This document shows, piece after piece, positions 1 to 6,000 of a DNA stretch of 64,000 nt. Position numbers: made by a program. This DNA is from Escherichia coli (lineage in GTDB: Bacteria; Pseudomonadota; Gammaproteobacteria; Enterobacterales; Enterobacteriaceae). Positions within the stretch are counted from its first letter, which is position 1. Each line of letters starts with the position of its first letter. The stretch lies in assembly GCF_029227855.1 (NCBI RefSeq), contig NZ_CP074357.1. The stretch is one strand, 5' to 3'.

Positions 1-3000
1 CGCGGCATTGATGTTCGGCTCATTTGCTATCGGAGAGGGTGACGAGTTCTCTGATATCGAATTCGCAGTGTTCATCCAGGATGACCATTTTGAAAATTTC
101 GATCAGCGCTCGTGGCTTAATGCCGTAAGTCCGGTTGCTGCTTACTTTCCGGACGACTTCGGCCACCACACCGCACTTTTTGAAAACGGCATTCGCGGTG
201 AATTCCATTTCATGCGAAAATCGGACATACCGGTCATTTCCACTTGGCAAGGCTATGGGTGGTTTCCCTCGCTTGAGGCGGCTGTTTTGTTGGACCGATC
301 AGGAGAGTTGTCAAGGTACGCAAGCGCTCTCGTGGGCGGTCCCCCGATACGTGAAGGCGCGCCGCTGGTGGAAGGGCTTGTGTTGAACCTCATCAGCCTG
401 ATGCTCTTTGGGGCCAATCTTTTAAATCGGGGAGAGTACGCTCGCGCCTGGGCTTTGCTCAGCAAAGCACATGAAAACCTACTCAAGCTGGTTCGACTCC
501 ACGAAGGGGCAACAGACCACTGGCCGACACCTTCACGCGCGCTCGAAAAGGATATCTCGGAGGACTCGTATAATCGCTATCTGGCATGCACAAGCAGTGC
601 AGAACCAAGAGCACTATGTGCAGCCTATCATCAAACGTGGACGTGGAGTCTCGAATTGTTCAAGAGCGTGACAGAACCTCTGAATATCGAGCTTCCGAGA
701 ACTGTAATTGCGCAGGCAAAAAGGTTGCTCAATGAGTCTGCGACGCCGCACAACAAGTAAATCCAGCGGACGCATAAAAACGCGCCGCTGATTTTGACGT
801 TAGATGCACTAAGCACATAATTGCTCACAGCCAAACTATCAGGTCAAGTGGCACTGTTGCAAATAGTCGGTGGTGATAAACTTATCATCCCCTTTTGCTG
901 ATGGAGCTGCACATGAACCCATTCAAAGGCCGGCATTTTCAGCGTGACATCATTCTGTGGGCCGTACGCTGGTACTGCAAATACGGCATCAGTTACCGTG
1001 AGCTGCAGGAGATGCTGGCTGAACGCGGAGTGAATGTCGATCACTCCACGATTTACCGCTGGGTTCAGCGTTATGCGCCTGAAATGGAAAAACGGCTGCG
1101 CTGGTACTGGCGTAACCCTTCCGATCTTTGCCCGTGGCACATGGATGAAACCTACGTGAAGGTCAATGGCCGCTGGGCGTATCTGTACCGGGCCGTCGAC
1201 AGCCGGGGCCGCACTGTCGATTTTTATCTCTCCTCCCGTCGTAACAGCAAAGCTGCATACCGGTTTCTGGGTAAAATCCTCAACAACGTGAAGAAGTGGC
1301 AGATCCCGCGATTCATCAACACGGATAAAGCGCCCGCCTATGGTCGCGCGCTTGCTCTGCTCAAACGCGAAGGCCGGTGCCCGTCTGACGTTGAACACCG
1401 ACAGATTAAGTACCGGAACAACGTGATTGAATGCGATCATGGCAAACTGAAACGGATAATCGGCGCCACGCTGGGATTTAAATCCATGAAGACGGCTTAC
1501 GCCACCATCAAAGGTATTGAGGTGATGCGTGCACTACGCAAAGGCCAGGCCTCAGCATTTTATTATGGTGATCCCCTGGGCGAAATGCGCCTGGTAAGCA
1601 GAGTTTTTGAAATGTAAGGCCTTTGAATAAGACAAAAGGCTGCCTCATCGCTAACTTTGCAACAGTGCCCATTTATGAATGTTCCTGTTATGGCTTATGT
1701 TCAAGAAAGCATTGCCCCTGAAATGATGGGCAAGGTGTTTTCCCTTTTGATGACCGCCATGACTCTTTCTATGCCGATAGGCTTACTTGTTGCAGGTCCG
1801 GTTGTTGAGGTTATAGGTGTTAATACATGGTTTTTCTGGTCTGGTGTTGCGTTGATAGTAAACGCTGTTCTCTGCCGCATTCTGACACGACGCTATGACA
1901 AAGTAACAATGAAACCGCAAGTGGACTGAAAAAAGGACCGGGTTGATGATAATTTGTAGTGGTGAGCTTCTGGGAGTACAAAACAAAGTGCTCAAAATTG
2001 TCGGGCTCATGGCGTTTAACGGTATTAATTTCGCTTATAATAATCTTTCTATAATAGCCTAAAGGAGAATATCTATGATACCTAATAGCGAAAATAAAAG
2101 AGTATGGTTTATTACCGGAGCAAGCAAGGGGCTTGGCTATGCTTTTACATGCGCCGCCTTGAAAGCCGGGGATAAAGTTGTTGCAGTTGCAAGGACTATC
2201 GATAATTTGGCGAAGCTAGAAGAAACATATCAAGAGAGCTTACTGCCATTAAACCTCGATGTTACAGATAGGGAGGCTGTTTTTTCTACGGTTGAAACAG
2301 CAGTTAAACATTTCGGTAGGCTTGATATTGTTGTTAATAATGCGGGTATCATGACTATGGGTATGATTGAAGAACTAAACGAATCCGATGCTCGGAAACT
2401 AATGGACACAAACTTTTTTGGAGCTCTTTGGGTTTGTCAGGCAGTGATGCCCTATTTGAGGTCGCAGCGTTCTGGACATATCATACAGATTACAAGCATT
2501 GGCGCTATTATCTCGGGTCCGATGTCTGGTATTTACAGTGCAAGTAAATTTGCGCTGGAAGGAATGAGTGAAGCCTTAGCAAAAGAAGCGGAACATTTCG
2601 GAGTGAAACTCACTATGGTGGAACCAGGAGGATATTGGACAGATTTATACACTTCGATGAGTTACAGCAATCCATTAGATTCATACGGTACACTGCGCGA
2701 TGAGCTGGCGAAACAGTATTCCGAAGATTCGGTCGATAGTGATCCTTCCTTGGCAGCGGAAGCCCTTATGAAATTAGTAGCCAGCAATAATCCGCCTTTG
2801 AGGCTTATCCTTGGCAGCATGGTATACGATTTGGCGATGGATACCTTAAAAGCACGGATGGCTACCTGGGAAGAATGGGAAGCTGTTAGCCGTGCATCAG
2901 AAAAGGCTATTCCTGCACCGGAGAGATATGGAGTATAATACCAAACATGGTTTTTGAGGCAAGGACGAAACTATCATGAAAATTGAAATTATGGAATATA

Positions 3001-6000
3001 ACCCGGATTGGACAAAGAATTTTGAAGAAGAGAAAATAAAATTGCTCCATTTTTTCGGTTCTCATGCCGTAGCCATTGAACATATCGGAAGCACGGCGAT
3101 ACCCAATCAACGGGCGAAACCGGTTATAGATATATTTATTGGCGTTTCGCCTTTTGCTGAACTACCTTTTATCAGCGCATTTTTAATGCAAAGGAGTATC
3201 ACCACACTCCGACAGATATGACAGGCAGATATTTGTTTGCAAAATATACAAATGAAGTTTGGACCCATAATCTTCTTGCTTTGGTGTAGGTATAATACCC
3301 AAAAACGAAGTTTATGCGGAACAGGATAACACCTCGAAATCGGAGTTTATATGGCTTCGTGGGGGAGTTATGTGTTTGAGCTTTGTCGCATTAACGCGAA
3401 TCAGGGGTTGACGGCAGAAATAGACTGGAATTACACTTCTTGGAGTCGGCGTTGCCGGAAAATTCTGATTGGATTAGTTGTTCGGGGTGCGAAAACAGTC
3501 GTAGTTCGGGGAAAAAACCGAATTTTGACCCAAAACCGCGAAAAACTCGAAATGACAGTTCCTATCAGTTTTCATAATGAATTAAAACAAAAAAATTAGG
3601 CTGCAAAGATAGGGAAAATGTGTCAATTTGCGTAAGTGATAATTAGTCAATTAAGATAAATGCTACTTTTGTAATCAAAGCAAAATGATATGAGCAAGAT
3701 TTTTGGAATCGTAAATATAACCACCGATAGTTTTTCCGATGGAGGACTTTATTTAGATACAGATAAGGCAATTGAGCATGCTCTGCATTTGGTTGAAGAT
3801 GGAGCAGATGTGATTGATTTGGGAGCCGCTTCCAGTAATCCTGATACAACTGAAGTGGGCGTTGTGGAAGAAATCAAAAGACTCAAACCTGTCATTAAGG
3901 CTTTAAAAGAAAAAGGCATTTCTATTTCTGTTGATACATTTAAACCTGAGGTTCAGAGTTTTTGCATAGAACAAAAGGTTGATTTTATTAATGATATTCA
4001 AGGTTTTCCTTATCCTGAGATTTATTCAGGCTTGGCAAAGTCAGATTGCAAACTTGTGTTGATGCACTCCGTTCAGCGAATTGGTGCAGCTACTAAAGTT
4101 GAAACGAATCCGGAAGAGGTTTTTACTTCCATGATGGAATTTTTTAAAGAAAGAATTGCTGCTTTAGTTGAGGCTGGTGTAAAGCGTGAACGAATTATTC
4201 TTGATCCGGGTATGGGCTTCTTTTTAGGCTCTAATCCAGAAACATCTATTCTTGTTTTGAAGCGTTTCCCTGAAATTCAAGAAGCTTTTAATTTGCAAGT
4301 AATGATTGCAGTGTCACGGAAATCATTCTTAGGTAAAATAACTGGAACCGATGTGAAATCTCGTTTAGCACCAACTCTTGCAGCAGAAATGTATGCATAC
4401 AAAAAAGGTGCAGATTATCTCCGCACCCATGATGTTAAGTCTTTATCAGATGCCTTGAAAATATCCAAAGCCCTAGGTTAGTTTTATTTTTTTAGCTTTC
4501 TAAATGAATATGCTATACTTGCTCTGAAGTTGTGTTGGCGTACTTGACTTAGGTCTGGATCTTTCGAACTGTTACTAAGAGGGTAATCATAGCCAAACAT
4601 AAACTGGAAATGTCCTAATTCTAAACCTGTTCCAATACCTACACTATGGTGATGCTGCCAACTTACTGATTTAGTGTATGATGGTGTTTTTGAGGTGCTC
4701 CAGTGGCTTCTGTTTCTATCAGCTGTCCCTCCTGTTCAGCTACTGACGGGGTGGTGCGTAACGGCAAAAGCACCGCCGGACATCAGCGCTATCTCTGCTC
4801 TCACTGCCGTAAAACATGGCAACTGCAGTTCACTTACACCGCTTCTCAACCCGGTACGCACCAGAAAATCATTGATATGGCCATGAATGGCGTTGGATGC
4901 CGGGCAACCGCCCGCATTATGGGCGTTGGCCTCAACACGATTTTCCGCCATTTAAAAAACTCAGGCCGCAGTCGGTAACCTCGCGCATACAGCCGGGCAG
5001 TGACGTCATCGTCTGCGCGGAAATGGACGAACAGTGGGGATACGTCGGGGCTAAATCGCGCCAGCGCTGGCTGTTTTACGCGTATGACAGGCTCCGGAAG
5101 ACGGTTGTTGCGCACGTATTCGGTGAACGCACTATGGCGACGCTGGGGCGTCTTATGAGCCTGCTGTCACCCTTTGACGTGGTGATATGGATGACGGATG
5201 GCTGGCCGCTGTATGAATCCCGCCTGAAGGGAAAGCTGCACGTAATCAGCAAGCGATATACGCAGCGAATTGAGCGGCATAACCTGAATCTGAGGCAGCA
5301 CCTGGCACGGCTGGGACGGAAGTCGCTGTCGTTCTCAAAATCGGTGGAGCTGCATGACAAAGTCATCGGGCATTATCTGAACATAAAACACTATCAATAA
5401 GTTGGAGTCATTACCGGAGAATTGTATCATTAACAGTCTAGTTCTAACGACTACCACTTTTAAGTATGTATTGAGCCAGTTTTATATTCAGGCACACCAT
5501 ATTGCACTCTAGCTCTTTCATCATTCTTGAAGAACTCTTAATTAAGTATTCTTCAAGTGGGCCAGCATATGCCCCTGATGTCACGATCGTTAGTTGCGTA
5601 AGAGGATGAGTCAAACTCTCAATGCCCTTCAGGATGTCATTCTGGACAGCAGCAATATAAACAGGCGAAGCCGCAATCAAATATTCATCATTCGGGCTGG
5701 ACTGCATTAACTGGCTTATAGTTGCGCAACGGTTATGCTTACCTAGTGATTTTGTGATGGCTTTCCACCAGAGATCATGCCTGAATGGTACTTGATGAAA
5801 TGTCGCCTCGTAAGAGGGCACCCGATCTCGACTATTTAAAAACCCCATCCCGGCAGAGATTATCCACAACTCCAGATTTCTGGTTGAGTTTAAAATTTCC
5901 TTTGCCGTAGACCAGTGATTACCTGAATACAAGGACAATGCCGGTACCGCCTGATTACTTCTGGCGTCGTCTACAATGTTACTCCAGGCATATGCTGCGT

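Follow-up and report, generated by a model that had tools for sequence, protein, structure and literature searches.

Adjacent deletion is classic behaviour of IS1, an insertion sequence that prefers AT-rich targets. IS1 copies also flank Tn2670, a Tn9-like element carrying Tn21 (bioRxiv 10.1101/334409), and Tn21 is in turn where the sul3 integron resides, whose globally dominant mef(B) variant, mefBdelta260, arose through a truncation made by IS26 (PMC9319951). Arrangements of IS26 with integrons are well documented on IncHI2 plasmids of sequence type 3 (ST3; PMC6206278), and the IncHI2 family typified by pR18.0877_278k carries aadA22, lnu(F), sul2, sul3, ramAp, tet(A) and floR (PMC12054066). 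Here, we analyzed a stretch of 64,000 nucleotides from Escherichia coli (assembly GCF_029227855.1, contig NZ_CP074357.1; hereafter the window), in which an lnu(F) integron remnant and a sul3 module are joined at an IS26, and the sul3 module ends at an IS1. We propose, with a probability of roughly 0.8, that positions 1-5415 represent the right end of the multiresistance region in an IncHI2 plasmid resembling pR18.0877_278k, an end assembled from three known pieces and brought to its present form by an IS1 adjacent deletion.

The first of these pieces would be a sul1-type class 1 integron cut by IS26 at both ends, with the order (as in relatives of the window) IS26-intI1 remnant-aadA22-lnu(F)-50 bp of 3'-conserved segment (3'-CS)-IS26. 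The second, IS26-mefBdelta260-SDR-GrpB fragment-sul3, would be the sul3 end of an integron that normally lies inside Tn21, and the third would be the catA1-side IS1 of a composite like the R100 r-determinant (Tn2670). In the history that we propose, the Tn2670-like composite would have entered the IncHI2 backbone as a unit, producing a 9-bp duplication of GGAGAATTG, while the aadA22-lnu(F) unit would have been joined by IS26-targeted incorporation beside an IS26 that was already present. The left end of IS1 (left inverted repeat, IRL) would have been the endpoint of an adjacent, one-ended deletion of about 13.2 kb, which would have left IS1 directly joined to DNA 166 bp beyond sul3, with the loss of IS440, qacL, aadA1, cmlA1, aadA2, psp, estX, intI1, the Tn21 genes tnpR and tnpA, ybjA and catA1.

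To compare the locus with sequenced plasmids, we queried PLSDB with built (synthetic) junction sequences and with stretches of the window; the counts of 192, 603, 921, 73, 188 and 880 plasmids given below are matches covering at least 80% of the query, and plasmid typing (IncHI2A) refers to the records inspected. Copies of insertion sequences within the window were located by BLAST of the window against itself. Reference stretches are denoted L001 (from a plasmid 100% identical to window positions 1-7000, with window position 1 at L001 position 12001), L005 (pHNSHP45-2), L010 (pR18.0877_278k) and L011 (the Salmonella Indiana plasmid NZ_CP031190). Window positions 1-7000 match at least 72 PLSDB plasmids at 100% identity; the 100% matches listed are plasmids of 199-310 kb from Salmonella, E. 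coli, Enterobacter, Klebsiella and Leclercia, and those inspected were IncHI2A-typed and pR18.0877_278k-like. As the matches to known elements are exact, chance resemblance is not an issue.

Origin of the IS1 downstream of sul3

The IS1 (4648-5415, plus strand; 768 bp) contains the open reading frames (ORFs) insA (4703-4978) and insB' (to 5400), is the only copy in the window, and matches the R100 IS1 and the two copies in pEF01 at 768/768 positions. A reading of the sequence alone (hereafter the sequence-only reading) had noticed that it lacks an 8- or 9-bp direct repeat and had suggested an IS1-mediated deletion or recombination. The first point is borne out by its flanks, CTACACTAT on the left and GGAGAATTG on the right. 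The latter (5416-5424) occurs as a single copy in the uninterrupted backbone of pHNSHP45-2, which reads ...AACAGGAGAATTGTATC at the place where the window has IS1-GGAGAATTG, and it corresponds to one copy of a 9-bp target duplication. To its right, positions 5416-17829 are an IncHI2 backbone segment, matching IncHI2 plasmids at 100% and collinear with pR18.0877_278k; the stretch 5416-7000 was found in 880 PLSDB plasmids, all of those inspected being IncHI2A. The junction between IS1 and backbone is present in 188 plasmids.

The other half of the duplication was found in relatives. A built ancestral left junction, backbone-GGAGAATTG-IS1, matched 10 plasmids at 100%, among them pEF01, where two direct, identical IS1 copies enclose a resistance region of about 21 kb with GGAGAATTG on both outer sides. 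The region beside one of these copies equals R100 1-6084 at 99.98% identity (57-bp spacer, Tn21 mer end, urf2 and tniA), while beside the other lie ybjA and catA1, the same genes as in R100 at that place. The pEF01 region is thus a direct IS1 pair around catA1 and Tn21, with the 9-bp duplication outside, and p30038n1 has the same annotated gene order. Compared with Tn2670 itself (the r-determinant of R100/NR1), the IS1 is the same throughout, and the relatives retain both the IS1-57 bp-Tn21 mer end and the tnpA-ybjA-catA1-IS1 end at 99.9-100% identity to R100, with the 9-bp duplication around the whole. The window, in contrast, has lost catA1, ybjA, Tn21 tnpA/tnpR and the 5' part of the integron, and In2 is replaced by the sul3-type integron and IS26 units. 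It keeps only the right IS1 and one copy of the duplication, the left junction being absent from its lineage. Judged by these alignments, the IS1 of the window is best read as the copy that stood on the right (catA1) side of a Tn2670-like composite. The structure of that composite is taken from relatives because the left IS1 and the adjoining backbone have been lost in the window's lineage. The IS1 would lack a repeat of its own because the duplication belongs to the IS1 pair, and because its inner flank was renewed by the deletion.

For the inner flank, the most informative plasmid is NZ_CP031190, likewise an IncHI2 plasmid, which in the orientation of the window has the order IS26-SDR-GrpB-sul3-hypothetical ORF-IS440-qacL-aadA1-cmlA1-aadA2-psp-estX-intI1-tnpR-tnpA-ybjA-catA1-IS1-GGAGAATTG-backbone; its catA1 side (L011 13514-21168) equals R100 14335-21992 at 99.9%. 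In BLAST alignments, window positions 1897-4647 correspond to L011 4419-7169 (100%) and 4648-7141 to L011 20401-22894 (99.9%). Relative to NZ_CP031190, the window therefore shows a clean loss of 13,231 bp, the right end of which falls exactly at the IS1 terminus. The DNA into which the deletion would have reached has 34-35% G+C, which fits the AT preference of IS1. The suggestion of an IS1-mediated deletion thus gains support, all the more as other deletions start from the same end of the element: a different inner flank with the same outer junction, seen in two plasmids, has ybjA cut at R100 19835, a deletion of 1,389 bp, and further inner flanks consist of a truncated IS26 with tet(M) and of an ArsR/permease segment. 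At least five distinct inner flanks share the one invariant outer junction.

These features agree with classic IS1 adjacent deletion in that the endpoint lies at the IS1 terminus, the element is kept, the outer flank is unchanged, no new duplication is seen and the target is AT-rich. Moreover, one IS1 end shows several distinct endpoints, a pair of which are nested within a shared R100-type template. The mechanism is read here from comparative structure, in which adjacent deletion by IS1 would account best for the 13,231-bp loss. We also lean, by a narrow measure, towards a broader interpretation, in which the inner end of the catA1-side IS1 in ST3-type IncHI2 plasmids would have made one-ended deletions repeatedly, with IS1, besides IS26, acting as a recurrent sculptor of resistance regions. 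If so, the set of inner junctions might serve as a lineage marker for tracking epidemic plasmids.

Alternative routes to the junction

Several observations weigh against the proposed history. NZ_CP031190 retains just 33 bp of mef(B), owing to a deeper IS26 cut, and we regard it as a cousin of the window rather than its parent for that reason; no direct ancestor was found. The arrangement catA1-IS1-GGAGAATTG-backbone survives in only three PLSDB plasmids, and the lineage of the window itself has lost the left-hand IS1 along with some 1.4 kb of adjoining backbone, its left backbone being inverted behind an IS26. Finally, the product sequence is the same whether a transposase deleted the DNA in one step or an IS1 insertion was followed by recombination between two IS1 copies.

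This last point leads to the strongest alternative, which we consider unlikely: a second IS1 would have inserted 3' of sul3, duplicating CTACACTAT, and homologous recombination by the host between this copy and the directly repeated catA1-side IS1 would have deleted the 13.2 kb together with one IS1. Besides yielding the same final sequence as the one observed, such a route has precedents for its insertion step, as IS1 has landed near sul3 and IS440 in independent events in unrelated plasmids (NZ_CP133281, stretch L008, and NZ_CP039580, stretch L009): it cuts inside sul3 in an IncX1 plasmid, and a tet(M)-IS1 segment abuts IS440 in IncF plasmids. The AT-rich neighbourhood of sul3 seems to attract IS1. 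Against the two-step route, it takes two events where one suffices, and its intermediate, IS1-CTACACTAT-AATCAAGAGG, was not found in PLSDB, where six apparent matches proved to be IS1 elsewhere. Metagenome contigs did not contain this intermediate junction either, but the control, the window's own sul3-IS1 junction, was absent from them as well, making that search uninformative.

A second alternative, which we regard as very improbable, would have the sul3-IS1 junction made on another replicon, from which an IS26...sul3-IS1 block would have been imported into IncHI2 through IS26 and IS1 recombination. Segments bounded by IS26 and IS1 do move between replicons, and the block aadA22-lnu(F)-IS26-mefBdelta260-sul3 is known from several plasmid types. 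Yet 72 of the 73 PLSDB plasmids with the sul3-IS1 junction also carry the IncHI2 backbone flank, none of the carriers inspected was a non-IncHI2 plasmid, and in the cousin NZ_CP031190 a sul3 integron is already found in this place and orientation on the IncHI2 backbone. That the junctions are assembly artefacts from collapsed or mis-joined IS copies, for which the seven full or partial IS26 copies of the window would be a classic cause, is extremely improbable, as the same junctions recur at 100% in dozens of complete plasmids from separate assemblies, laboratories and hosts, and the window has a single IS1.

Returning to the adjacent deletion, its place in the order of events is informed by pR18.0409_279k. 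The undeleted combination lnu(F)-50 bp 3'-CS-IS26-mefBdelta260-sul3-IS440 occurs at 100% on several plasmid types, including this IncHI2 plasmid, and because it exists, the IS26 join of the two integron remnants is probably older than the IS1 deletion. We infer this order, like the role of the IS1 transposase and the IS26-targeted joining of the aadA22-lnu(F) unit, from the junctions described here. Two plasmids were set aside as ancestors. pR18.0409_279k is rejected as the parent, as its aadA22-lnu(F) unit stands beside a complete sul3 integron at another backbone site, without IS1 at GGAGAATTG. The IncHI2 plasmid pS38 has a complete sul3 integron and full-length mef(B); it is rejected as a direct ancestor, since a truncated ybjA leads there into an mcr-1 region instead of catA1-IS1.

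Two integron remnants joined at one IS26

All elements listed in the sequence-only reading were found, as judged from the sequence, its ORFs and the RefSeq and AMRFinder annotation of identical plasmids: lnu(F), 50 bp of 3'-CS, IS26, 260 bp of mef(B), the SDR gene, the GrpB fragment, sul3 and IS1. The window begins 62 nt inside the 822-nt lnu(F) lincosamide nucleotidyltransferase cassette gene, the 3' 760 nt of which occupy positions 1-760 (plus strand). Its ORF (8-760) is 100% Lnu(F), and AMRFinder reports lnu(F) at 100% in the same place in identical plasmids. The attC site (59-base element) of the cassette was read from the sequence at 761-799 (plus strand). The consensus of the integron core site is GTTRRRY; here GTTAGAT (799-805) conforms to it and ends the lnu(F) cassette, with the boundary between the G at 799 and the TT that begins at 800. 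The next 50 bp (800-849, plus strand) can be assigned to the beginning of a class 1 integron 3'-CS because a synthetic lnu(F)-3'-CS-qacEdelta1 junction matched three plasmids at 100% over its full length, with qacEdelta1 annotated; overall, the intact form is present in three to seven plasmids. As had been proposed, IS26 cut the 3'-CS after these 50 bp, leaving the lnu(F) integron remnant without qacEdelta1 and sul1.

The IS26 itself (850-1669, plus strand; 820 bp) carries tnp26 at 913-1617, was recognized by self-BLAST against six other IS26 copies of the window, and is annotated in identical plasmids as IS26 family transposase WP_001067855.1. It shows no 8-bp target duplication, its flanks being GGTCAAGT and CATTTATG, and it serves as a boundary for both the sul3 module and the aadA22-lnu(F) unit. 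Plasmids that are 100% identical have, ahead of window position 1, IS26, a 798-nt intI1 remnant cut by that IS26, attI1, aadA22 and lnu(F). The two IS26 copies have the same orientation and make up a directly oriented pair, again without an 8-bp duplication around the unit (CGCCGATG to the left of the upstream copy, CATTTATG to the right of the downstream one). Such a duplication around an IS26 pseudo-compound unit is expected only after copy-in transposition, and from established IS26 biology its absence would be consistent with incorporation beside a pre-existing IS26. The junction of lnu(F)-50 bp 3'-CS with IS26 is found in 192 PLSDB plasmids, including pMUR050 (NC_007682), whose aadA22-lnu(F) remnant also shares the IS26-intI1 remnant junction with relatives of the window. 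What sets the window apart from the pMUR050-type unit is that its right-hand IS26 also bounds the sul3 module.

At L001 10700-10910, the intI1 remnant contains the motifs TGGACA...TAAGCT and TTGTTA-17 nt-TACAGT with a GGG insertion, which we take to be a weak Pc variant and an active P2, respectively. As relatives retain these promoters in the integrase remnant upstream, expression of aadA22 and lnu(F) probably persists despite the truncated integrase.

Beyond IS26, the sul3 module begins with mefBdelta260, the last 260 bp of mef(B) (1670-1929, plus strand), which aligns to the 3' end of the full-length gene in pS38; the junction of IS26 with this remnant was found in 603 PLSDB plasmids. It is followed by an SDR family oxidoreductase gene (2075-2938, plus strand; an ORF annotated WP_000612791.1 in identical plasmids), an 81-aa fragment of a GrpB family protein (2976-3221, plus strand; an ORF annotated WP_001354008.1) and sul3 (3690-4481, plus strand; an ORF that AMRFinder calls sul3 at 100%), which encodes a sulfonamide-resistant dihydropteroate synthase of 263 aa. 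The 166 bp 3' of sul3 (4482-4647; 34% G+C) are the kept part of the region that leads to a small hypothetical ORF and IS440. Position 4647 maps inside that ORF, just before the IS440 transposase gene, when compared with L002 and L011, and the last 9 bp, CTACACTAT, would have been the target of IS1.

In classic sul3 integrons, sul3 reads toward IS440, in the order sul3, small hypothetical ORF, IS440, qacL, cassettes and intI1. The window departs from this order, as the sequence-only reading had noted, by having an IS1 at the end of its sul3 module, in the place where IS440 would follow. Relative to the Tn21-borne sul3 integron with mefBdelta260 (pCERC3, and the I1 plasmids of PMC9319951), the part IS26-mefBdelta260-SDR-GrpB-sul3 is identical, whereas IS440, qacH/qacL, the cassette array and intI1 of the pCERC3 type are missing and IS1 stands instead, 166 bp after sul3. 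With IS440, qacL and the cassettes absent, the arrangement that defines a sul3-type integron (cassettes-qacH/qacL-IS440-sul3-orf(s)-mef(B)-IS26) is incomplete in the window; what is kept of it is sul3-GrpB-SDR-mefBdelta260-IS26. By this evidence, the lnu(F) remnant derives from a sul1-type integron bounded by IS26 and the sul3 remnant from a sul3-type integron in Tn21, the two being joined at the shared IS26.

Just upstream of sul3, we also noted what appears to be a terminal remnant of an IS91/ISCR-type element (3275-3567; 97.5-98.6% identity to its homologues). Matching segments occur in hundreds of plasmids without sul3. In pNT1F31-96kb, the homologue starts from the 3' end of a transposase gene of IS91-like type that lies beside an erm gene, and the one in pKp202_1 lies directly upstream of armA in an ISCR1...armA-ISEc29 context. 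Thus, sul3 and armA seem to share a terminal piece of one IS91/ISCR-type element.

Distribution and meaning of the junction

The sul3 module (query 1669-4647) was found in 921 PLSDB plasmids and the sul3-IS1 junction in 73. This bears on an observation that the sequence-only reading had named as one against it, namely that the IS1 junction is standard in reference sul3 contexts: in general it is not (8% of the sul3 modules), yet it is fixed in one IncHI2 lineage, where 72 plasmids have it at 100%. The junction is therefore unusual among sul3 contexts and at the same time a settled, much-sequenced feature of a single plasmid lineage. Published work describes the mefBdelta260/Tn21 context and the gene set; we found no explicit description of the sul3-IS1 junction in the literature. 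Every piece of the locus is of a known kind, and neither a new mechanism nor a new gene is involved.

With intI1 truncated in the relatives, and with the rest of the 3'-CS and IS440/qacL missing, neither integron should be functional; the window appears to hold remnants only, and not a working integron of either type or a complete Tn2670. From its genes, the region is nevertheless predicted still to encode resistance to lincosamides (lnu(F)) and sulfonamides (sul3). We do not uphold the further suggestion that sul3 functionally replaces the missing sul1, as the two fragments come from two integrons and near-identical plasmids also carry sul2, located about 11 kb upstream; sul2 is also listed among the genes of the lineage (PMC12054066).

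The IncHI2 family is epidemic; it spreads multidrug resistance from food animals to people, in both Salmonella and E. coli. For such plasmids, sul3-CTACACTAT-IS1-GGAGAATTG offers a junction marker by which the lineage can be recognized in short-read data. The comparison also indicates that catA1 and cmlA1 (chloramphenicol) and aadA1 and aadA2 (streptomycin/spectinomycin) may disappear in a single step that spares sul3.

The remainder of the window

Compared with pR18.0877_278k (from Salmonella Goldcoast; an ST3-type IncHI2/IncHI2A plasmid), window positions 1-7000 are 100% identical and 14001-63750 are collinear at 99.97-100%. As a whole the two are nearly identical, but only the window carries an additional, duplicated segment of 1.55 kb plus an IS26 at about 23.4-26.7 kb (23358-26712), and pR18.0877_278k has an IS21 insertion of about 2.1 kb (L010 7818-9787) that is absent at window positions 56033-56038. 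The absence of IS21 and the extra sequence indicate that the window comes from a close relative and not from pR18.0877_278k itself.

A second resistance region (17830-47825) contains tet(A)/tetR, strB with a strA remnant, floR, ISVsa3, ramAp, a glutathione synthase gene, IS4321 and aph(3')-Ia. Further full IS26 copies lie at 24908-25727, 26713-27532, 33999-34818, 45006-45825 and 47006-47825, along with a 301-bp fragment at 38084-38384. Among the PLSDB matches to positions 1-7000, a tandem duplication suspected from alignments in two pieces proved to reflect the inclusion of the upstream IS26.

The segment 47826-50825, which starts in a truncated hns right after an IS26, corresponds, in inverted orientation, to the pHNSHP45-2 backbone left of the IS1 site. 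The window lacks the left-hand IS1 as well as about 1.4 kb of backbone by that site (L005 6619-8000). Together, the inverted backbone and the missing 1.4 kb point to an IS26-mediated inversion and deletion.

A direct repeat of 1,551 bp, with 100% identical copies at 17869-19419 and 23357-24907 and a third, partial copy at 44141-45005, is about 82-86% similar to Tn21 tnpA. This similarity makes it probable that the repeats, which border IS26 units, are what is left of another transposon of the Tn3 family. Lastly, self-BLAST offsets revealed a short tandem repeat, in units of about 37 bp, at 25807-25983, just after an IS26.

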